The notes below the pieces were generated by a model that was given only the letters and a program-made list of their open reading frames with translations, searched no databases and was not told where the DNA came from. A stretch of 17,816 nt of DNA, from IMG/VR virus record IMGVR_UViG_2939121850_000003. One strand, 5' to 3'. The DNA is from a virus. Taxonomy: Duplodnaviria > Heunggongvirae > Uroviricota > Caudoviricetes. Of this stretch, positions 20-12,549 are shown piece after piece (position 1 is the stretch's first letter; every line of letters starts with the position of its first letter). The translations under genes and the position numbers were made by a program.

Positions 20-1315
20 TTAATTTTTCATTGCTTCGTTATGGGGCATGGTTGGGGCAAACTCGCTTAACTGTGTATTTAACAAAGCTACCTGTGCATT
101 ATTGTTTTCAGACATCCATTTTCCGTATACCTGAAATACCATTTGCGCATCTGCATGGCCCATCTGGTTTGCTATAAATGCCGGGTTAGCACCAGCTGTC
201 AGCGACCAGCAGGCATAAGTATGTCTCGACTGATATGATTTTCGATGGCGGAGTCCGGCACGTTTTATCGCTGCGTCCCACATCTGCCTTATTGAGTCAA
301 CGGTAAAATGGTCACCATAATTTTTTACTCTCGCTGACACTTCAGGTTGAAAAACAAAGGTGCATTTTTGTTTTTCTGTTCTGCCATACTCTCTGAGGTG
401 AACATCAATGATATGCTCTTTGCTCAGTCTCGTTAATGTCATCTGACTCCGGAGAGCGTCGATTGCTGGCTTAATAAGATGAATGACCCGATTGGTTCCC
501 GCCTGTGTTTTTGGTACCGTGAAACGGTCTTTTGCTAAATTTCTCCTGATCATCATTGTTCCATTTTTCAGATCTATGTCCTCCCATCCAAGTGCACACA
601 GCTCACCAGGGCGAACGCCAGTATAAACAGAAACACACCATAAATTTTTTGCTTGCTGATTTCTGCACGCATCGATAAGACGGATAAATTCTTCCCGCGA
701 AAGAGGATCCGGAATGGTTCTTGATTCCTTTAATGGCGAGATCCCCTTAAACGGATTATCTGCCAGGTAACCGTTATCAACACCAAACTGGAACACGGCG
801 TTAAGATTTGTCATGTAATTATTTACAGTTACAGCCGATCTCCCTGGTTGTGTAACAATATAGTTACTTTTGGGGATCTGGTATCCAGTCAGTAACTCTT
901 TACGAACCTCCAGTAATTTTTCTTTATTAATCGATGAGGCAAGATTTTTTTCACCGATTATGCTCAGGATATTTTTGATGACGGCACGGTATGTGTTGAG
1001 TGATGTTTTGGCGACTTCAGTTTCTTTCAGTGCCAGAAATTTTTCAGCCAGTTCTTTTATGGTTAAATCTTGTCGGGCCTCACCAAATTTTTCCAGATTG
1101 CGTGAGGAGGGAAACTGTTTTGCATAGTCGAAAACACCAGTTTTTATTGCGTAACAAACAGAGGAGCGTAGTTCACCTGCAACGCGCCTGTTTTTTGCTG
1201 TGTCAGGAACCCCCAGGTTTTCCCTGACTCTTACGCCTTTATAAACAAACCAGATACGTAATTTCCCTCCATGGTTTTCCACGCCTGTCGGATATTTCAT
1301 TTCAACTTCTCTCAT
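20..1315 (-). CDS. int: Tyrosine-type site-specific integrase (lambda-family phage integrase)
   Basis: 431-aa ORF. C-terminal region has the tyrosine recombinase pattern (SRHTYACWS ... GHADAQMVFQVYGKW: RHT box, GH, catalytic Y). Sits at the island end directly downstream of an excisionase-like gene on the same strand. The true start may be the second Met (MKYPTG, about 1300). Confidence 0.9.
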   Translation of the reverse strand: MREVEMKYPTGVENHGGKLRIWFVYKGVRVRENLGVPDTAKNRRVAGELRSSVCYAIKTGVFDYAKQFPSSRNLEKFGEARQDLTIKELAEKFLALKETEVAKTSLNTYRAVIKNILSIIGEKNLASSINKEKLLEVRKELLTGYQIPKSNYIVTQPGRSAVTVNNYMTNLNAVFQFGVDNGYLADNPFKGISPLKESRTIPDPLSREEFIRLIDACRNQQAKNLWCVSVYTGVRPGELCALGWEDIDLKNGTMMIRRNLAKDRFTVPKTQAGTNRVIHLIKPAIDALRSQMTLTRLSKEHIIDVHLREYGRTEKQKCTFVFQPEVSARVKNYGDHFTVDSIRQMWDAAIKRAGLRHRKSYQSRHTYACWSLTAGANPAFIANQMGHADAQMVFQVYGKWMSENNNAQVALLNTQLSEFAPTMPHNEAMKN

Positions 1316-1658: not shown

Positions 1659-4130
1659 TTAAGAATCAGCCTGACTCGGGATCAGTTTTTGCCAGATAAC
1701 TGAAACGTATTTTGCCTGGTAACGGGCGTCATCAAGTGCATTATGGCGCTCACCTTCGAATTGAATAGCCGTTCTGGCATCGAAGTCTATGACTTTCCCC
1801 AGCTCAACGATTGTGCGTACATCGCGATCGTTGTAGTAACGCCACGGGCAGGGGATCCCCTGCCGTTCGTATGAACGGCGCAAAATCGTGTTGTCGAAGT
1901 TGGCTCCATTCCCCCAAACCTGAACAAAAAATTCACCGGAGTTTTCGTCGATAAATTCCCGCAATTGTAACAGTGCATCATCTAACGGGATTTCATCGGT
2001 CATAATGGCAGATTGCGCTTCGCGTGATTGCTTAAGCCACCATTTAATGGTGTCCCGATCAATGACTCCGCCAGCAGTTTCCAGATCGATAGTCTTACTA
2101 AATTCCGGTCCCATATCTCCGGTTTGCGGATCGAAAAATATTGCACCTATTGAGGTGATCGGGGCATCAGGATTTTTTCCCATGGTTTCAAGGTCGATCA
2201 TTAGATGGTCACACGTCCTGCTGGTGGATGTGATTTCGTGATGACCGTTCACCTTAATTGGGTGATCTGCCGTCTCGCCAGTTTCATTATCGCTATTGTG
2301 ATGCTGATTGCCGCCAGTGTTCTCCTTGTGTGGATGTTCAGCGCCTTCCATTTCCTCCGGATCATCTTCCTGAACTTCAACCTGATACTCTTCATCGAAT
2401 GTTTCTTGGTATGTTGCGTCGCCCATCACCGCGCCACAATCAGGGCAGTTGCCGCCGCCGGTCTGACCGCAGGCGGTGCAGACTTTTTCCACTTCCTGTT
2501 GCGCTACTGGTTCAGGCTGTTTCGTTTCTGGCTCGTTTTGTAACGCATTTGGACTGTTTTGTTCCGCTTTTTGGTAGTTCCGTTCCGATTCATGCTGGTT
2601 CTGGTTCACAGAATCGCGGGTCTGGATCCCCTTAACCCATTTCGGATCATTCGGGTCACTAATCCCTTCAACAAATTCACCACGTGATGCAGCAAGCAAC
2701 TTATCAGCGTCAGGCTGGCTGATATTGGCTGCCTGCATAATTTTGTTTACTTCGTCAGCGGTAACTTTTATCGGCTCTGGTTGTTCTGAATCTTCAGCGG
2801 TATCTACATTTTGCGGTAAGCCCGTGTATGTGCCATTTTTTCGGGCAAAATATTCTTCTTTTGTGATTTCAGTGGCGCCAGCAGCCAGTGCCTTATCCAG
2901 ACCAGAAAGTTTGTTTGCGCGACCGTATTTTTCTCCGTCCTTATCTGCGAAGAGGAAATAGAACGGCCCCTCACGCTCTACAGATGGTTCAGCTTCCGGC
3001 GCGGTTTCATTTTTTGGGATATCAGATACCTCAGTTTCCACTGCATCAGTTTGTGTTTCTGATGACTGGAGAACATCAACAGTGCCCAGGTCTGTTTCTT
3101 CATTCTCAAACACGCCCTTTGTCGTCAGGTATTCGCAGATATATTTGTTCAGTGCTACGGGATCTTTGTGAATGTCGATCGGACGCTCACGGACAAGGCC
3201 AAAAATAGTTTGGCGGTCGTAGCGAAGGGCATCAGGCTGTTTGCGCATTGATGCCGAGATACGCTTCCAGTCTTCGCGGTCGTTGTCGATAACTTCTTTT
3301 TTTGCCCAGCGATGGATGCTGCCGTCAATGTTTCCGGCATCCACATCACCAGGCCAGAGAGCGTAGGCCAGTTCGTCATCCAGTGTTTTCCATGTCTGCT
3401 TGTATTCGCGATGAATGGCAGCAATGACCGGGCTGATTTTTCCTGTTGAATTTTCAGTGTACTGTTGATTGGCTCTGGCGCGTGCGAGATCAACAACAGA
3501 CGTGTATTTTCCGGTTTCCTTGCGTTCACCTTCGCGACGTTTTTTCCAGATGCGCATCTCTGCCTGAATTTCGGGCCATTTAGCACCAGGAATACATTTA
3601 TGCTTAACCCACCCAATGGCGTGCAACTTAAGCTCCGGATACATGGCGTTAACTTCTGGCATTTTCATCAACGCTTCAACGATATGTCCGTCGAATGTTG
3701 CCATGTCTTCCTGCAACAATTCCTGTGCGCTAATAACCATATCAACGGTGATGTTTTCACATGTGTCGAACTTAACCATGACAGCGTTCTGTACTTCAGG
3801 GGCCAGCTTGTCAAAAGTGACGTTCATCGGATCGGATTCAGTCTCAACCGGGACAAAAGAAGCAGACTCCTCATCCCAGCGGTTTTCCTGCATATATTCA
3901 GCATCCCATGAATCGAGGGCAGGGCGGGGTATGCCAGGTTTATCCTCGCAGACAATAAATTTATAAGCGCAGTCCTGAGCAGCCGGATAATGTTCCAGGA
4001 ATTGCCAGTGAAATTTTGCTCGAGCACGGCGTTCGTCGCCAGCTTCAATGGCTGTGGCTACAGCCACAGCGCCTTCTTCCCTTGTTGCCAGTTCGTCAGG
4101 AATAGCGGCGCAAATAAAGACTTTACTCAT
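1659..4130 (-). CDS. Prophage exonuclease, 823 aa, with C-terminal DEDDh (DnaQ-like) 3'-5' exonuclease domain
   Basis: C-terminal segment has Exo I (MIDLETMG), Exo II (VWGNGANFDNT) and Exo III (HNALDDARYQAKY) motifs. An acidic low-complexity linker and a C-x2-C-x7-C-x2-C zinc-ribbon-like motif (CTACGQTGGGNCPDC, coded about 2430-2500) precede it. Resembles the large proteins annotated as exodeoxyribonuclease VIII in lambdoid prophages. Start has upstream context consistent with a pL-type leftward operon. Confidence 0.8.
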   Translation of the reverse strand: MSKVFICAAIPDELATREEGAVAVATAIEAGDERRARAKFHWQFLEHYPAAQDCAYKFIVCEDKPGIPRPALDSWDAEYMQENRWDEESASFVPVETESDPMNVTFDKLAPEVQNAVMVKFDTCENITVDMVISAQELLQEDMATFDGHIVEALMKMPEVNAMYPELKLHAIGWVKHKCIPGAKWPEIQAEMRIWKKRREGERKETGKYTSVVDLARARANQQYTENSTGKISPVIAAIHREYKQTWKTLDDELAYALWPGDVDAGNIDGSIHRWAKKEVIDNDREDWKRISASMRKQPDALRYDRQTIFGLVRERPIDIHKDPVALNKYICEYLTTKGVFENEETDLGTVDVLQSSETQTDAVETEVSDIPKNETAPEAEPSVEREGPFYFLFADKDGEKYGRANKLSGLDKALAAGATEITKEEYFARKNGTYTGLPQNVDTAEDSEQPEPIKVTADEVNKIMQAANISQPDADKLLAASRGEFVEGISDPNDPKWVKGIQTRDSVNQNQHESERNYQKAEQNSPNALQNEPETKQPEPVAQQEVEKVCTACGQTGGGNCPDCGAVMGDATYQETFDEEYQVEVQEDDPEEMEGAEHPHKENTGGNQHHNSDNETGETADHPIKVNGHHEITSTSRTCDHLMIDLETMGKNPDAPITSIGAIFFDPQTGDMGPEFSKTIDLETAGGVIDRDTIKWWLKQSREAQSAIMTDEIPLDDALLQLREFIDENSGEFFVQVWGNGANFDNTILRRSYERQGIPCPWRYYNDRDVRTIVELGKVIDFDARTAIQFEGERHNALDDARYQAKYVSVIWQKLIPSQADS

Positions 4131-5912: not shown

Positions 5913-6335
5913 GTGGCAAAAGTTTTTACACAAGAAGAGCGGGAAAAAATTAAAGGGCAGGTTGTTGAACTCGTACGCCGGAGTGGGCGTGAGACGTTAC
6001 GGCAACTGGAAGTCAAGACAGGTGCGACAAGATATCTGATGAGCGTTCTCGCAAGAGAGCTGGTTGCCAGCGGCGATGTATACAACTCTGGTTACGGGTT
6101 ATTCCCGTCTGAACAGGCGCGTAAGGACTGGCAAAATGCCCGTAAAAAGCTCTCAAGGGCAAAGCTGAAGGAACCATCTGCGGTTGATCCGGACCTTATC
6201 TGGTCATTACCTGACGGAGAAATACGTCGTTACGACAGGCGTCATAATATGATTTGTACTGAGTGTCGTAAAAGCGAAGTTATGCAGCGCATATTGTCGT
6301 TTTATCAGGGGGATGTCCGGTATTTATTGAAGTGA
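5913..6335 (+). CDS. Hypothetical protein (140 aa), possible DNA-binding protein
   Basis: GTG start at 5913 preceded by a strong Shine-Dalgarno (cAGGAGGg at 5902-5909). Lies 41 bp after the rep-like gene, so probably co-transcribed. N-terminal segment ETLRQLEVKTGATRYLMSVLAREL looks HTH-like. Confidence 0.65.
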   Translation: MAKVFTQEEREKIKGQVVELVRRSGRETLRQLEVKTGATRYLMSVLARELVASGDVYNSGYGLFPSEQARKDWQNARKKLSRAKLKEPSAVDPDLIWSLPDGEIRRYDRRHNMICTECRKSEVMQRILSFYQGDVRYLLK

Positions 6336-6464: not shown

Positions 6465-7409
6465 TCACAACCAGCCGACGCTCTCTCGCCATTTATAATT
6501 AGTAACTTTATCATTTTCGCTTATTTTTTTAGATATAGAGCGCGGCTCTCTTCCTAGATACTCAGATATTTCTATCGGGGACAAATCAAAATCAACAAGC
6601 ATGACTCTAAGTTTTTCCATTTCCTTTAAAGTCCAAGGCTTGCCATAATTTTCATAAAGAGATACCTTATGCTCCCTGATAGTTCGCTTTCTCTGAGTTT
6701 CACTTTCCCTCTGAAAAATCTCGCTTTTAAATTGTGAACGGAACTCTTTACAGAAGTTGTTATCAGTTTTTTTGTTATATAGATTGCTAAAAATAAGCTG
6801 GGATGCCGGGTCTAAATCAGGTGTGTTAATAATGAAAACTTTGACCTTTTCCATATAGGGATATTCAATTTTACCCAATATGCTTAATTGCTTTATATTA
6901 AAAAAACCTCTCAAATCAAAAGATTTAATGAGCTTTGATTGGATTACACTTTCAATCCTGCTTGCATTTAAATAACAGTACTTTGCCATTGGAAGGGCCC
7001 ATACTACCAGTTGAGGAATATATTTTTCTAATGCAATGCTCTGCCAATCAGTATCAAAGGTTTGGCTTTTTGCTAGCATGTTTTTCGGCAAATCAGAATA
7101 CATTGTGGTAGATGCCCATATCTTATAATCATTCGCCAAGGCTTGATAGTATTTTGTGTGGTTATGAATTTTATAAGCTGACATGAAGCGATAAACGTCT
7201 TCGTCGTGACCAGCGTCGTAAATTGTTCGATTTCCTCTAAGATAACCGTCGTAATGTTCGGTTATCCTTCTACCTACATTACAACTTACCCCAACGTAAA
7301 CCACACGACTGAAAAGTCCTTTATGGACAATAAGATAAACTCCGCTACAGCCAGATTTCCTGGCCTCTGATAGAGAACCTAAAAATCTCCATTCCATAAT
7401 TAAATCCAT
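6465..7409 (-). CDS. GIY-YIG nuclease-domain protein (314 aa) with C-terminal HTH-like region
   Basis: N-terminal GVYLIVHKG...VVYVGVSCNVGRRITEHY matches the GIY-(N10)-YIG-(x)N...R...H nuclease signature. C-terminal WTLKEMEKLRVMLVDFDLSPIEISEYLGREPRSISKKI looks like a DNA-binding helix-turn-helix. The gene is strongly AT-rich relative to the flanking prophage genes (by eye). Confidence 0.8.
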   Translation of the reverse strand: MDLIMEWRFLGSLSEARKSGCSGVYLIVHKGLFSRVVYVGVSCNVGRRITEHYDGYLRGNRTIYDAGHDEDVYRFMSAYKIHNHTKYYQALANDYKIWASTTMYSDLPKNMLAKSQTFDTDWQSIALEKYIPQLVVWALPMAKYCYLNASRIESVIQSKLIKSFDLRGFFNIKQLSILGKIEYPYMEKVKVFIINTPDLDPASQLIFSNLYNKKTDNNFCKEFRSQFKSEIFQRESETQRKRTIREHKVSLYENYGKPWTLKEMEKLRVMLVDFDLSPIEISEYLGREPRSISKKISENDKVTNYKWRESVGWL

Positions 7410-7956: not shown

Positions 7957-9306
7957 TTATTCCGTTTTACATATCATAGTAGTCGATTGGAGAATATAGT
8001 TTCTGGGAATGTACTCTTCAAAGTGTTCGTCCTTTTTAAATACATGAACTACATTTGGGAATAATTGATAGTCAACAGGGTGTATAGCGTTTGGATTATG
8101 GTACATGTACATGGCTGTACACCATGGTTCTTGATAGTTAGGGTCACTTACATCGGCTGAAAATGGATGTGGGGCTGCATCCTGATCAGTTTTAACACCA
8201 CTGACGTACACTTTGAATCCACTCGCCTCTACACCTGCAAGAATTCCCATCCGGTTAAACTTAGGTATGGTTGCTTGAGTAGTGAGTAAAACGGCAGAAA
8301 CATAATTATTTTGTTCTGAGCCAAAAAAGTTCGACTTGATACTTCTATTTTCATCTGTATGTCTTTCAATAGAAATGCCTGACTCAATATCAATCCCGTA
8401 CAAATAGCTATGCAAGGCTTCGCTTGAGAAGGCCATGGACATTCTTTTTGAATAATCCTGCATTGCTATGACAAATGGTTTGTTCTTTGTATGGTTGAGT
8501 TCCCAGTAATGAACTTTCTCTGGCTCAGGGCAATGCCGGACTTTTTTTAATAAACTTCTTGCAAACTTAAAAGGCATGACATTTAGAACATGTTTTCTTA
8601 ATTCATCCATCTGTTCATCGTTAATGACTTTTCTTTCAAGAGGGGCTTCTGCTTCAGCAATGCTTACAGCCTCTACAGCAATTTCCACTCCAAATTTAGA
8701 TAGCAGAAAATCTGGTTGATTGTATTCTCTATTCATTTCAAAGTCGAGTTCATAAAATACAGCGTTCAAATATAATTCAAATAACCTTGAATTAAATGCA
8801 TCACTTTGAAAATCCCTTATAAATATTCCATCAGGATCTTTGAACCAGTATGCAAGTTCCTCAAGAACAATATATGCAGGGAAATGAAGAGGGTCTTCGA
8901 GGAGCATTTTTATATAAACATTCCTTTTTTTCGCTGGGACCTTACTCAAGAATAATGAAAAAGGTTTGGTTGATTCATCGCCTTGCATGAATGTACCATT
9001 TTGGTGCTGCGCCAGCATCTTTGGTATGTCATCGTTCAAATTATTAAGCAAGACATCCATTGAATCAAATGAAGCCAAGACGTTTATTGCTCTGAATTTT
9101 TTATCTAAATCCCGACCTAAGACTATTGCGTTAAAATCTTTATCAATATTGCATATGATTATTGTGGATAACAATGTTATCCCATTCCCCTCATATTTAA
9201 ACCAGCGTATCTCCTCAGAAAATGTCTTAAGGTAAGGTGAGCGACCGTAAAAATAAATATCAAATTGTTCTTTGCTGATCTCACTGAAGTGTAATCCTGC
9301 GTTCAT
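7957..9306 (-). CDS. Hypothetical protein (449 aa), no recognisable family
   Basis: Long uninterrupted ORF in the AT-rich block. ATG at 9306 is preceded by AAGGAA about 8 nt upstream on the minus strand. No Walker A, methyltransferase or other signature found by eye. Confidence 0.75.
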   Translation of the reverse strand: MNAGLHFSEISKEQFDIYFYGRSPYLKTFSEEIRWFKYEGNGITLLSTIIICNIDKDFNAIVLGRDLDKKFRAINVLASFDSMDVLLNNLNDDIPKMLAQHQNGTFMQGDESTKPFSLFLSKVPAKKRNVYIKMLLEDPLHFPAYIVLEELAYWFKDPDGIFIRDFQSDAFNSRLFELYLNAVFYELDFEMNREYNQPDFLLSKFGVEIAVEAVSIAEAEAPLERKVINDEQMDELRKHVLNVMPFKFARSLLKKVRHCPEPEKVHYWELNHTKNKPFVIAMQDYSKRMSMAFSSEALHSYLYGIDIESGISIERHTDENRSIKSNFFGSEQNNYVSAVLLTTQATIPKFNRMGILAGVEASGFKVYVSGVKTDQDAAPHPFSADVSDPNYQEPWCTAMYMYHNPNAIHPVDYQLFPNVVHVFKKDEHFEEYIPRNYILQSTTMICKTE

Positions 9307-9590: not shown

Positions 9591-9623
9591 ACTCAAATCT
9601 CCCACATTGCAGGAGATTTGAGT
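9591..9623 (+). promoter_or_regulatory. Perfect 12-bp hairpin sequestering the recombinase Shine-Dalgarno (ACTCAAATCTCC-N9-GGAGATTTGAGT)
   Basis: Right arm 9612-9623 contains GGAG and ends one nucleotide before the ATG at 9624. The architecture (12-bp inverted arms, 9-nt spacer) could alternatively be a protein-binding or recombination core-type site. Confidence 0.6.
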
Positions 9624-10226
9624 ATGAACACGTCACCGTGGAACAAAGACCGTATCATAGGCCAAAAAAGACCACTTCAGATATCTCATATCTGGGGTAT
9701 CCGAATCCGACTTGAACTGGAAGGTAAAACTCGCGATTTAGCTCTGTTCAACATGGCCCTGGATAGTAAGCTTCGAGGCTGTGATCTGGTCAAACTCAAA
9801 GTATCTGATGTTGCATATGGTGGCTCTGTTTCAAGCAGAGCAACGGTGTTGCAACAGAAAACCGGTAGCCCTGTTCAATTTGAGATAACCAAAGGGACAA
9901 GAGAAGCTGTTGCTGCATTGATACAGCTTAGCAATTTGCACAGTAAAGACTTCTTGTTTCGGTCTAGGGTCGGAACTAACCAGCACATTTCAACCCGGCA
10001 ATACAACCGAATCTTTCATGGGGGGGTAGAAAAGCTTGGTCTCGAAGATTCGCTTTACAGCACACATTCCATGAGAAGAACAAAACCTTACCTGATCTAC
10101 AAGAAAACCAAGAATCTCCGGGTGATCCAACTTCTGTTGGGTCATAAGAAACTGGAAAGCACAGTCCGTTATCTGGGCATTGAAGTCGATGATGCGTTAG
10201 AGATTTCTGAATCGATTGAAGTCTAA
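9624..10226 (+). CDS. Short tyrosine recombinase (about 200 aa, FimB/FimE-like catalytic-domain-only integrase)
   Basis: From ATG 9624 (MNTSPW...); the ORF track's 9618 is a TTG. Contains an R box (TRDLALFNMALDSKLRGCDLVKLKVSDV), HSMRRT (H-x-x-R) and LLGHKKLESTVRYLG (GH...Y). Size and motif spacing match the FimB/FimE family of small invertase-type tyrosine recombinases. Confidence 0.8.
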   Translation: MNTSPWNKDRIIGQKRPLQISHIWGIRIRLELEGKTRDLALFNMALDSKLRGCDLVKLKVSDVAYGGSVSSRATVLQQKTGSPVQFEITKGTREAVAALIQLSNLHSKDFLFRSRVGTNQHISTRQYNRIFHGGVEKLGLEDSLYSTHSMRRTKPYLIYKKTKNLRVIQLLLGHKKLESTVRYLGIEVDDALEISESIEV

Positions 10227-10585: not shown

Positions 10586-11566
10586 ATGAAATTTAAGGAC
10601 AAGAACCTTAAGGCTCTCGCGGAATGTATCATAGGAGATAATAAGGCATTTCTGTATCGTTCAAGCAGTCACATCACTGAATTTTTCCAGGACTGCGGCA
10701 TGGATGTTACTCATGACGGATCCACTCGGTGGAAATGGACGGCCCAGAGGCTTGAAGAACTTCTTTATGAGCCACAGTCAAAGCCACATACTTTGCCGGA
10801 AAGGTTTGTTCATGTGCTCAGAACTTTAATGTTAAAAGAAGATGCAATGGATGACGATCCAGGAAGATTAAAGGCGCTTGAAGAACTGAACAAGCCTTTG
10901 ATGCGGGAAGGCTATGAGGCATTCTATGGTGACGATCGCCTTTTGTATATACGCCATACCGATACCAAAACGGTTTCAGTCAGTAATAACCCTCATCGGC
11001 CCTTAACGCCTCACGAAGTAGAATGCAGAAGGTTACTGACCGCGTTTCTTGATACCTGCTCAGAAGATGAGTTAATAGAAGATATTCTCCTTCCTTTATT
11101 CCGGCAACTTGGTTTTCACCGGATAACAGCAGTGGGACATAAAGATAAAGCGCTGGAATACGGGAAAGACATCTGGATGAAGTTCACACTGCCAACTCAG
11201 CATGTTCTTTATTTCGGCATTCAGGCAAAAAAAGGTAAGTTGGATGCGTCCGGTGCCAGCAAATCTACGAATTCAAACGTGGCAGAAATCTTCAACCAGG
11301 TACTGATGATGCTTGGCCATGAAATATTTGACCCAGAAACAAATAGAAAGGTGCTGGTAGATCATGCCTTTATCGTTGCTGGCGGAGAAATTACTAAACA
11401 GGCGAGGAACTGGCTGGGCGGGAAACTTGATGCCAGCAAAAGAAGCCAGATAATATTTATGGACCGGGAAGACATTCTTAATTTATATACTGTAAGTAAT
11501 GTACCTCTGCCAACAGGTGCTCTCATCTCTGATGATGCCGTTAAGAACGATGATATTCCTTTCTAA
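10586..11566 (+). CDS. Protein with C-terminal Mrr-like PD-(D/E)XK restriction-endonuclease-type motif and uncharacterised N-terminal domain (326 aa)
   Basis: ATG at 10586 preceded by gaGGGGGAGa. C-terminal segment ITAVGHKDKALEYGKDIWMKF...HVLYFGIQAKKGK shows the D...(I/V)QxK arrangement of Mrr-type nuclease cores. The N-terminal 170 aa or so have no motif I recognise. Confidence 0.75.
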   Translation: MKFKDKNLKALAECIIGDNKAFLYRSSSHITEFFQDCGMDVTHDGSTRWKWTAQRLEELLYEPQSKPHTLPERFVHVLRTLMLKEDAMDDDPGRLKALEELNKPLMREGYEAFYGDDRLLYIRHTDTKTVSVSNNPHRPLTPHEVECRRLLTAFLDTCSEDELIEDILLPLFRQLGFHRITAVGHKDKALEYGKDIWMKFTLPTQHVLYFGIQAKKGKLDASGASKSTNSNVAEIFNQVLMMLGHEIFDPETNRKVLVDHAFIVAGGEITKQARNWLGGKLDASKRSQIIFMDREDILNLYTVSNVPLPTGALISDDAVKNDDIPF

Positions 11567-11682: not shown

Positions 11683-11790
11683 AAATTTATTAAAAATACT
11701 TATTCATCAAGCTGGAGTAGTTTGCCGAGTAACTGTAAACGCCCAACTTAACCGGACCATTCACTTTTAGATTGCTACCAGCAAACCAAC

Positions 11791-11814
11791 TTCCGTTTCT
11801 CGCTCAAAGCGGAC
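11791..11814 (+). repeat. 24-bp junction element, copy D (TTCCGTTTCTCGCTCAAAGCGGAC)
   Basis: 20/24 identity to copy B0. Located between the Mrr-like gene and the small-ORF/hok region. Confidence 0.6.
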
Positions 11815-11993
11815 TAGAAGGTTAGCTTGCGTCGGACTTGGCGTATTTAAAGAAGTGCTGGTGGTAACTGGTTGTTGTGTTCCATTTCTACAAAACAAAA
11901 TCACAGAAACTATACCCAATAGTTATATTGAATCAATGATGAGACAGCCTCATATTTATCAGAACTGGTGTACGTCCAATACAGGAGGTTGTC

Positions 11994-12083
11994 GTGCTGG
12001 TTCTCAAATATGCGCTAGCTATTGCGGCTGTAATGGCAATTTATTGTCTTGCTATTGTTCTTACGGATCGCCTTTCTGATTGA
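11994..12083 (+). CDS. Candidate small hydrophobic membrane peptide (29 aa, MLVLKYALAIAAVMAIYCLAIVLTDRLSD)
   Basis: GTG start 5 nt downstream of a perfect AGGAGG (11983-11988). Single predicted TM helix with a charged C-terminus. Not in the ORF track because of its length. Location next to a hok locus. Confidence 0.4.
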   Translation: MLVLKYALAIAAVMAIYCLAIVLTDRLSD

Positions 12084-12237
12084 TTTTATATTGGCGAGGT
12101 GACGGGAGTTAAGTAGAATTGCTGCGGGTGCTTGAGGCTATCTGCCTCAGGCATGAACACCAAAGGCAGATAGAGAAAAGCCCCAGTTAACATTACGCGT
12201 CCTGCAAGACGTTTAACATTAATCTGAGGCTCAATCT

Positions 12238-12450
12238 ATGAACGGCAAATCTAGGTTAGCCTCTTACGTGCCGAAAGGCAAGGAGAAGCAGGCTATGAAG
12301 CAGCAAAAGGCGATGTTAATCGCCCTGATCGTCATCTGTTTAACCGTCATAATGACGGCACTGGTAACGAGGAAAGACCTCTGCGAGGTACGAATCCGAA
12401 CCGGCCAGACGGAGGTCGCTGTCTTCACAGCTTACGAACCTGAGGAGTAA
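12238..12450 (+). CDS. mok-like in-frame leader extension of the hok gene (70 aa reading frame)
   Basis: The ORF starts 19 codons upstream of the hok start in the same frame, as in chromosomal mok/hok loci. Whether it is translated independently is inferred. Confidence 0.45.
   Translation: MNGKSRLASYVPKGKEKQAMKQQKAMLIALIVICLTVIMTALVTRKDLCEVRIRTGQTEVAVFTAYEPEE
12295..12450 (+). CDS. hokD: Hok/Gef-family type I toxin (51 aa), hokD/relF-type
   Basis: MKQQKAMLIALIVICLTVIMTALVTRKDLCEVRIRTGQTEVAVFTAYEPEE matches my recollection of E. coli HokD (RelF) almost exactly and the Hok family signature (TRKDLCEV...E/TEVAAF). Internal ATG at 12295. Confidence 0.85.
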   Translation: MKQQKAMLIALIVICLTVIMTALVTRKDLCEVRIRTGQTEVAVFTAYEPEE

Positions 12451-12517: not shown

Positions 12518-12549
12518 AACCCGCTTCGGCGGGTTTTTGTTTTTATTTT
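12518..12549 (+). terminator. Rho-independent terminator downstream of hok (AACCCGC-TTCG-GCGGGTT followed by TTTTTGTTTTTATTTT)
   Basis: 7-bp GC-rich stem, TTCG tetraloop and long T-tract read directly, 68 nt after the hok stop. Confidence 0.8.

Follow-up and report, generated by a model that had tools for sequence, protein, structure and literature searches.

The stretch of DNA analysed here (the window, 17,816 nucleotides) belongs to an E. coli chromosome and represents a lambda-like prophage that has decayed to a deleted and rearranged remnant. The following features of the prophage, by position in the window, surround the segment of interest.

20-1315, minus strand: integrase
1659-4130, minus strand: large ORF with a 3'-5' exoribonuclease-like (Rv2179c-like) domain
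5913-6335: DUF977 gene
7957-9306, minus strand: PD-T7-1 anti-phage defence protein, 449 aa, full-length match (PADLOC, E=7e-157)
9618-10226: internal integrase fragment, 202 aa
13264-14619: ORF of 451 aa with a Peptidase_S74 tail-fibre chaperone domain, directly after the rem-side genes

The gene order is DUF977, a cargo block (PD-T7-1 and the integrase fragment), a small ORF, mok/hok/sok, and rem; beyond rem lie a tail-fibre remnant and then a host MFS transporter gene. The two ORFs that neighbor PD-T7-1 (6465-7409, minus strand, and 10586-11566, plus strand) have no family match. The segment that carries the small ORF and the hok locus contains the following features, all on the plus strand.

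11928-11956, plus strand: putative sigma-70 promoter, recognized by its conservation only (-35 TTGAAT at 11928-11933, 17-nt spacer, -10 CATATT at 11951-11956)
11968-11976, plus strand: leader motif GTGTACGTC (consensus GTRYACGYC), between the -10 and the Shine-Dalgarno sequence in all promoter-bearing types
11983-11988, plus strand: Shine-Dalgarno sequence AGGAGG, 5 nt 5' of the start codon, with GGAG invariant in all upstream types
11994-12083, plus strand: small ORF, 29 codons, GTG/TGA, encoding MLVLKYALAIAAVMAIYCLAIVLTDRLSD, a predicted single-pass membrane microprotein; open in all variants and under coding constraint
12066-12119, plus strand: hok promoter region from the promoter scan, with an A/T-rich stretch, -35 TTGGCG (12091-12096), 17 nt, and -10 TAGAAT (12114-12119)
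12126-12300, plus strand: hok mRNA leader and sok antisense region (Rfam RF01794 sok, 111.7 bits, E=4.5e-26, full-length model)
12238-12450, plus strand: mok, from the ORF list
12295-12450, plus strand: hok, hokD-type, 51 aa, overlapping mok (RefSeq hokD, WP_012578894.1, at the equivalent position of an identical locus)
12518-12545, plus strand: intrinsic terminator of the hok transcript, a 7-bp stem with 5 GC pairs and a T-run

An earlier note on this DNA had described an unannotated 29-codon frame next to a known type I toxin locus, opened by AGGAGG and, 5 nt later, GTG, and encoding a peptide with one transmembrane segment and a charged tail. Coordinates and translation match that description exactly. 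The AGGAGG (11983-11988) is followed by the spacer ttgtc and the GTG (11994-11996), the frame closes at a TGA (12081-12083), and its translation is MLVLKYALAIAAVMAIYCLAIVLTDRLSD. The 29-aa peptide has a GRAVY of 1.60 and ends in DRLSD, and its best 19-residue window (residues 6-24) has a mean hydropathy of 2.38, so that one transmembrane helix fits. The neighboring toxin locus is likewise as described, an intact mok/hok/sok identified by the Rfam sok match and the RefSeq hokD. All four copies of AGGAGG in the 17.8-kb window are on the plus strand, and one of the three besides that at the small ORF lies in front of the DUF977 gene. The combination of AGGAGG, a spacer of 4-9 nt, a start codon and a frame at least 25 codons long is found at three sites in the window, compared with 0.44 +/- 0.68 in shuffled sequence. 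The signal at the small ORF exceeds chance.

We think it very probable that the 29-codon frame is a genuine gene, so far unannotated, whose product is a tiny membrane protein of lambda-like prophages. We gathered homologous loci in three ways, using a degenerate pattern for the core of the ORF, an exact pattern for the hok promoter and leader that is blind to the ORF, and a pattern for a sister branch. The family has two branches, one with proteins of 29 or 30 aa, (M)LVLKCALAIAAVMAIYCLAVVLMDRLSD, and one with proteins of 34 aa, MSDDISLAMEGALAVIAVVGVYCLVVFLMDRLGN. The frame is open, with its stop in register, in all of the more than 40 distinct family sequences (28 of the 29-aa branch and 14 of the 34-aa branch). 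Identity between the branches is 41-45%, and the alignment has eight invariant columns, including L, AL, V, YC, L and R, and a shared stop register. The family consensus is LxxK/E-x-ALA-x-x-AV-x-x-(I/V)YCL-x-V-x-L-x-(D/E)R-L-x-x. Although about 30-40% of nucleotides differ between the branches, length, stop register, Shine-Dalgarno sequence and start are kept.

Changes among alleles have the pattern expected of a coding sequence. In counts made within branches, with the codons fixed by the search patterns left out, changes at codon positions 1, 2 and 3 number 11, 8 and 25 (binomial p=0.0012), and synonymous and non-synonymous changes number 22 and 22, where neutrality would give about 26% synonymous (p=0.0006). 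The frame of the ORF has an omega of about 0.3, the other forward frames have 1.0-1.4, and the stop-free frame on the opposite strand has 1.03. A variant in E. coli TA447 (WP_249534103.1) has an in-frame insertion of 3 nt together with many synonymous differences. Between the branches, pairwise Nei-Gojobori estimates do not tell frame 0 from frame +1 (pS/pN of 0.58/0.30 vs 0.52/0.31), which is unsurprising for a helix made of Val, Ile, Leu and Ala. Because this pairwise test does not discriminate, we relied on the within-branch position counts instead. The earlier note had held that a frame that is not conserved in relatives would speak against a gene; relatives keep both the frame and a synonymous-biased pattern of change. 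Phage HannyBb has a CDS annotated on the opposite strand, which we rejected as the gene at this site; its omega is about 1 and there is no corresponding open ORF in the window.

The small ORF is a further member of a small, uncharacterized family of prophage membrane microproteins that has already been glimpsed. Hucker et al. (2017, PMC5597208) reported XECs145 as a novel translated ORF of E. coli O157:H7 Sakai and predicted its product to be in the inner membrane. The sequence of XECs145 ends in the 34-aa protein known as RefSeq WP_001278450.1 and UniRef A0A0K4X2R1, a "hypothetical protein" in RefSeq and uncharacterized in UniRef. In LB, XECs145 had a transcriptome RPKM of 79, a translatome (RIBOseq) RPKM of 346, a ribosomal coverage value (RCV) of 4.35 and a coverage of 0.99, for an ORF call that is extended at its 5' end and overlaps the end of another small ORF, from prophage copies to which reads multi-map, and with footprints that could partly come from spontaneously induced cells (PMC5597208). 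In BHI the RCV was 1.14, and under cold and osmotic stress there were hardly any footprints (PMC5597208). The ribosome profiling covers the 34-aa member of the family, and the case for the 29-aa member is made from sequence signals and coding constraint. Ribosome occupancy, which the earlier note had proposed as a check, is seen for the homologue in LB.

XECs145 and the ORF in the window are homologous and have the same C-terminal register, and both lie directly upstream of a hokD-type promoter in a lambdoid prophage. The ORF in the window has the motif ALA..AV..(I/V)YCL.V.L.(D/E)R and the stop register of the XECs145 (WP_001278450.1) family, and it has the location typical of XECs145 and its relatives, on the nin side and directly 5' of a hokD-type hok/sok promoter. 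The same position is found in O157, in TA447 and in phages Tritos and HannyBb. XECs145 differs from the ORF in the window in having five extra N-terminal residues (MSDDI) and an ATG start, in lacking a promoter of its own and following DUF551 and a 27-aa ORF in the early-right operon, and in being separated from hok by a 22-bp palindrome. It is also annotated and has ribosome-profiling data, whereas the 29-aa form has neither.

Two features of these loci are worth recording. The palindrome in the O157-type loci, CGATATGGGAATTCCCATATCG, is perfect and is flanked by the stop of the 34-aa ORF on one side and the hok promoter on the other (L180 2031-2010, minus strand). There is no T-run after it, so it is not a standard terminator, and it could be a protein-binding site. 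Many loci also contain a second, apparently unrelated family of 27-aa hydrophobic ORFs, MTWPEAFTTVGIAMAVALVVYSICRWG, with the form MIWPEAFAITGVAIAIDFLVYVICRWG in L180 (2263-2180, minus strand). The 27-aa ORF has an AGGAGG Shine-Dalgarno sequence, overlaps the stop of DUF551, and is found either directly 5' of the hok promoter or 5' of the 34-aa ORF. It is unannotated in the O157 record inspected.

The 29-aa form is common and has been overlooked. The segment with the promoter and the ORF, at least 80% covered, is present in 1846 of 5426 complete E. coli genomes, mostly in one copy each, and the small ORF is also in phages Tritos, Evi, mEp460_ev081 and HannyBb. E. coli 042 is 100% identical to the window across 11850-12250, and UK_Dog_Liverpool likewise carries this exact locus. 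In every RefSeq row inspected the 29-aa form has no annotation, as the earlier note had said of this DNA, and it has no name or accession in a collection of 15 billion proteins. When proteins were searched with the ORF extended upstream in frame, the only matches were near-identical artefacts of gene callers and the exact 29-mer, and a literature search with the peptide string found nothing in main texts. The ORF is not mentioned in the paper on hokW-sokW (PMC8621323), nor in a paper on a finder of small membrane proteins. K-12 does not have the ORF, and its relBE is fused to a leaderless hokD; small-protein catalogues made in K-12 have therefore missed it. Only 26 close relatives, all from this family, came out of an exhaustive profile search across 1.84 billion representative proteins. 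In a species-level genome scan, a degenerate AVMAIYCL pattern matched 42 loci, mostly by chance in unrelated genes. The real matches were in E. ruysiae, Shigella flexneri and three short contigs in unrelated metagenome bins, and these contigs are probably contaminants. The family is narrow and belongs to lambdoid phages of Escherichia and Shigella.

The small ORF appears to have its own expression signals. Its putative promoter matches the sigma-70 consensus at 8 of 12 positions and was missed by our promoter scan, which has a threshold of 9 of 12. Transcription from it would start near 11962. The DNA upstream of the 29-aa ORF falls into five groups (A-E, six aligned representatives), and, aligned without gaps, these sequences are 34-60% identical to the window across the 90 nt 5' of the ORF and 89-91% identical within it. 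Within this diverged DNA there are invariant islands: the TTG of the -35, the 17-nt spacing with CATATT, the GGAG, and the start GTGCTGG. Such islands in a diverged flank look like the signature of a selected promoter and ribosome-binding site. The Shine-Dalgarno sequence and start codon are retained in every branch. The 34-aa branch and the TA447 variant are without the promoter of the 29-aa type and lie downstream of genes on the same strand. The Shine-Dalgarno sequence of these promoterless forms is AAGGAGGG or TGGAGA, and in the 34-aa branch AAGGAGGG is 5 nt before the ATG.

Some other elements of the upstream region deserve mention. The leader motif GTGTACGTC is missing from the branches that have no promoter of their own, and we could assign neither a structure nor a binding factor to it. 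The -35 region is palindromic (ATTGAATCAAT, window 11925-11937), and the same -35 serves, in the divergent direction, a minus-strand promoter-like site, TTGATT-16-TATAGT (11936->11909), with no assignable leftward product. Three candidate regulatory structures were rejected. A leader hairpin that hides the start codon has neither covariation nor family-wide conservation. A possible terminator or attenuator hairpin inside the gene (12018-12037) is weak, with 3 GC pairs, and is absent from both the 34-aa branch and TA447. An inverted repeat that could sequester the Shine-Dalgarno sequence (11777-11794 vs 11984-12001) has its left arm outside the conserved module, where unrelated sequence replaces it in other loci. 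Nor did we find the alternative terminator and antiterminator hairpins of a leader peptide or attenuator.

The small ORF and hok are close neighbors, yet they can be separated. The ORF ends 8 nt 5' of the hok -35 and 43 nt 5' of the hok mRNA 5' end (~12126). Thus, it is upstream of the hok promoter and outside the hok transcript, and we rejected the idea that it is a mok-like overlapping leader frame; the true mok lies further downstream. The scan found no convincing terminator between the stop of the small ORF and hok, and the hok terminator is the first one 3' of the small ORF. As ascertained from the ORF side, a hok leader is downstream in ~91% of 29-aa loci and in >95% of 34-aa loci. In ~9% of the loci of the 29-aa branch, hok has been lost and an unrelated module follows position 12098. 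In many hok loci, all that is left of the ORF is its last ~8-12 codons, preceded by mosaic junctions that differ between loci (L169, L196, L199 and L243; 12061-12090). Since there are ORF loci without hok and hok loci without most of the ORF, neither needs the other. One and the same Hok protein is common to both branches, to loci whose only small ORF is the 27-aa one, and to loci without an ORF. Co-variation of Hok with the ORF was tested across loci and not found, and a Hok that is the same in all these contexts gives no signal of co-evolution for an interaction. The adjacency of the ORF and hok may reflect a shared function or merely a conserved lambdoid gene order. In L169, the remnant of the ORF is a 6-codon mini-frame, MDHLSD, behind a chance AAGGAG.

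The partial loci raise the question of whether the DNA is there for hok and not for the peptide. The A/T-rich stretch 5' of the hok -35 overlaps the last ~6 codons of the ORF and is probably an UP element, and the retention of the 3' stretch suggests that the hok promoter needs it. On this basis the frame could be non-functional, preserved for the hok promoter or simply part of young mosaic sequence, with any translation incidental. The region that overlaps the end of the ORF is indeed the part that survives truncation, sequences of the 29-aa branch are 89-100% identical, and T-rich DNA readily yields hydrophobic frames. Against this reading stand the third-position and synonymous excess, the in-frame indel, the preservation of length, stop register, Shine-Dalgarno sequence and start between branches so different in nucleotide sequence, the promoter and Shine-Dalgarno islands in otherwise diverged flanks, the ribosome footprints on the homologue, and the omega near 1 of the stop-free frame on the other strand. 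We regard a non-functional frame as very improbable.

The earlier note had also suggested that the peptide might be a second type I toxin. If so, an antisense or divergent small RNA would silence it, and the peptide, once released from silencing, would damage the membrane and thereby kill or arrest the cell. The resemblance is real. The peptide has the size, the single hydrophobic helix and the short polar tail of known type I toxins (Hok/Gef, Ldr, Ibs, TisB, ShoB, ZorO and DinQ), which are often on mobile elements, as the ORF is, and the ORF adjoins a Hok locus. It differs from these toxins in belonging to no described toxin family (no match in Pfam, NCBIfam or PHROGs at E<=10 or in PADLOC at E<=0.01) and in having neither a detectable antitoxin RNA nor a leader that sequesters the Shine-Dalgarno sequence.

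Candidates for an antitoxin RNA could be named and did not hold up. The Rfam search gave no RNA other than sok, which belongs to hok. The promoter scan detected a minus-strand site, TTAACT-18-TAAAAT (12112->12083), that would yield an RNA antisense to the 3' end of the ORF, but in most variants its -10 becomes TGAAAT or TGTAAT; the key A at position 2 is lost and the site is therefore unconserved. The palindromic -35 could drive a divergent RNA from the site described above, but the duplex of such an RNA with the mRNA (-40.7 kcal/mol) is weaker than that of shuffled sequences (-49.3 kcal/mol). The search for an antisense partner, which the earlier note had proposed, led to no cognate RNA in these analyses.

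The same is true of a structured leader that would hide the Shine-Dalgarno sequence in growing cells. RNAalifold pairs the leader motif GTGTACGTC with codons 5-7, which encloses the Shine-Dalgarno sequence, but there is essentially no covariation (1 of 21 pairs), the Tyr6 codon of the window itself disrupts one of the predicted pairs, and the fold of the leader and ORF is ordinary (z=0.17). Type I toxin genes are unlike the small ORF in a further respect, in that the latter has a strong, open ribosome-binding site and a homologue that, with its RCV of 4.35, was among the better-translated novel ORFs in growing EHEC. The gene is also single-copy in most genomes. From these comparisons we see no support for filing the ORF as a type I toxin, and we consider this reading unlikely, though not to the degree of a frame without function.

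We suspect, with somewhat better than even confidence, that the small ORF encodes a single-pass inner-membrane microprotein that is expressed in lysogens of lambda-like (Qin/hokD-type) prophages and that binds another membrane protein through helix-helix contacts, and that it is not an RNA-silenced toxin. The 29-residue protein would insert in the inner membrane as one transmembrane helix. In the window, the ORF would be served by its own weak sigma-70 promoter, a leader of ~30 nt and a perfect Shine-Dalgarno sequence, with no terminator before that of hok. Given this arrangement, the microprotein would probably be made constitutively in the lysogen and its transcript would probably read on into hok. 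The conserved features of the family are a face of small residues (Ala/Gly at i, i+3 and i+6), a Tyr-Cys pair and a short charged tail, and from these we infer helix-helix binding to another membrane protein. The microprotein could then act as an accessory factor of the moron type and not as an autonomous RNA-silenced toxin. A role as a membrane modulator, the other possibility raised for the peptide, is plausible.

What the microprotein might bind is a matter for speculation. Given its fixed place directly 5' of the hok promoter, the first candidate target is Hok or the membrane step on which Hok acts, a suggestion that we offer tentatively and with more doubt than belief. A stronger version is that the microprotein is a protein partner of hok/sok, binding Hok or acting on the same membrane step so as to blunt leaky Hok in the lysogen or tune Hok-assisted lysis and phage release. 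Both branches and the TA447 variant are directly 5' of a hokD-type promoter despite differing genes further upstream, linkage to hok is very frequent (91% to >95%), and no terminator separates the two genes. In addition, an I-x-C-L motif is common to the ORF and the transmembrane segment of Hok, and HokW helps the release of Sp5 after induction (PMC8621323). Yet Hok is nearly invariant and is the same whether it is next to either branch, the 27-aa ORF only or no ORF, many hok loci have a mere remnant of the ORF and some ORF loci have no hok, and the conserved gene order of mosaic lambdoid genomes could alone explain the adjacency. Furthermore, the toxin and antitoxin behavior in the hokW paper did not need the ORF (PMC8621323). 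We think a dedicated partnership with hok/sok unlikely, if still worth entertaining.

A broader speculation is that hokD-type modules are three-part cassettes, in which a microprotein made in the lysogen, either from this family or from the unrelated 27-aa family (MTWPEAF...YSICRWG) in the same slot, binds Hok or takes part in the same membrane step and serves at the protein level as an immunity factor or timer, on top of the Sok RNA. This is a long shot. If true, it would add a new layer of control to a textbook type I system.

The lysogen-expressed membrane microprotein that we favor has parallels among known small proteins. MgrB, AcrZ, MgtS and CydX are small inner-membrane regulators of E. 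coli, single-pass proteins of 30-50 residues that bind a larger membrane protein and have no RNA antitoxin. They are chromosomal core genes with known partners, whereas the small ORF is prophage-borne and confined to phages of Escherichia and Shigella. Prophage morons, of which bor and lom of lambda are examples, offer a second comparison. Like them, the small ORF is an accessory gene with its own (putative) promoter, here in a variable cargo slot together with PD-T7-1. It is far shorter than bor and lom, however, lacks its own terminator, and is not known to benefit the lysogen.

This gene is present in about one third of complete E. coli genomes, without an annotation in any RefSeq row inspected, and the gap is worth closing whether or not the microprotein modulates Hok. 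The accessory repertoire of lambdoid prophages gains a widespread membrane microprotein that is probably expressed in the lysogen. If the microprotein modulates Hok or membrane integrity, it bears on how prophage toxin modules stay harmless or serve lysis or exclusion. If it has no such effect, it is one further uncharacterized microprotein.

The left edge of the conserved module (window 11792-11813) is a hairpin, GTCCGCTTT-loop-AAAGCGGAC in most loci and degenerate in the window. It occupies the same position in L017, L004, L041 and others, and has no T-run on either strand. Dozens of unrelated cargo sequences join precisely at this hairpin, and thus it looks like a recombination or module boundary.
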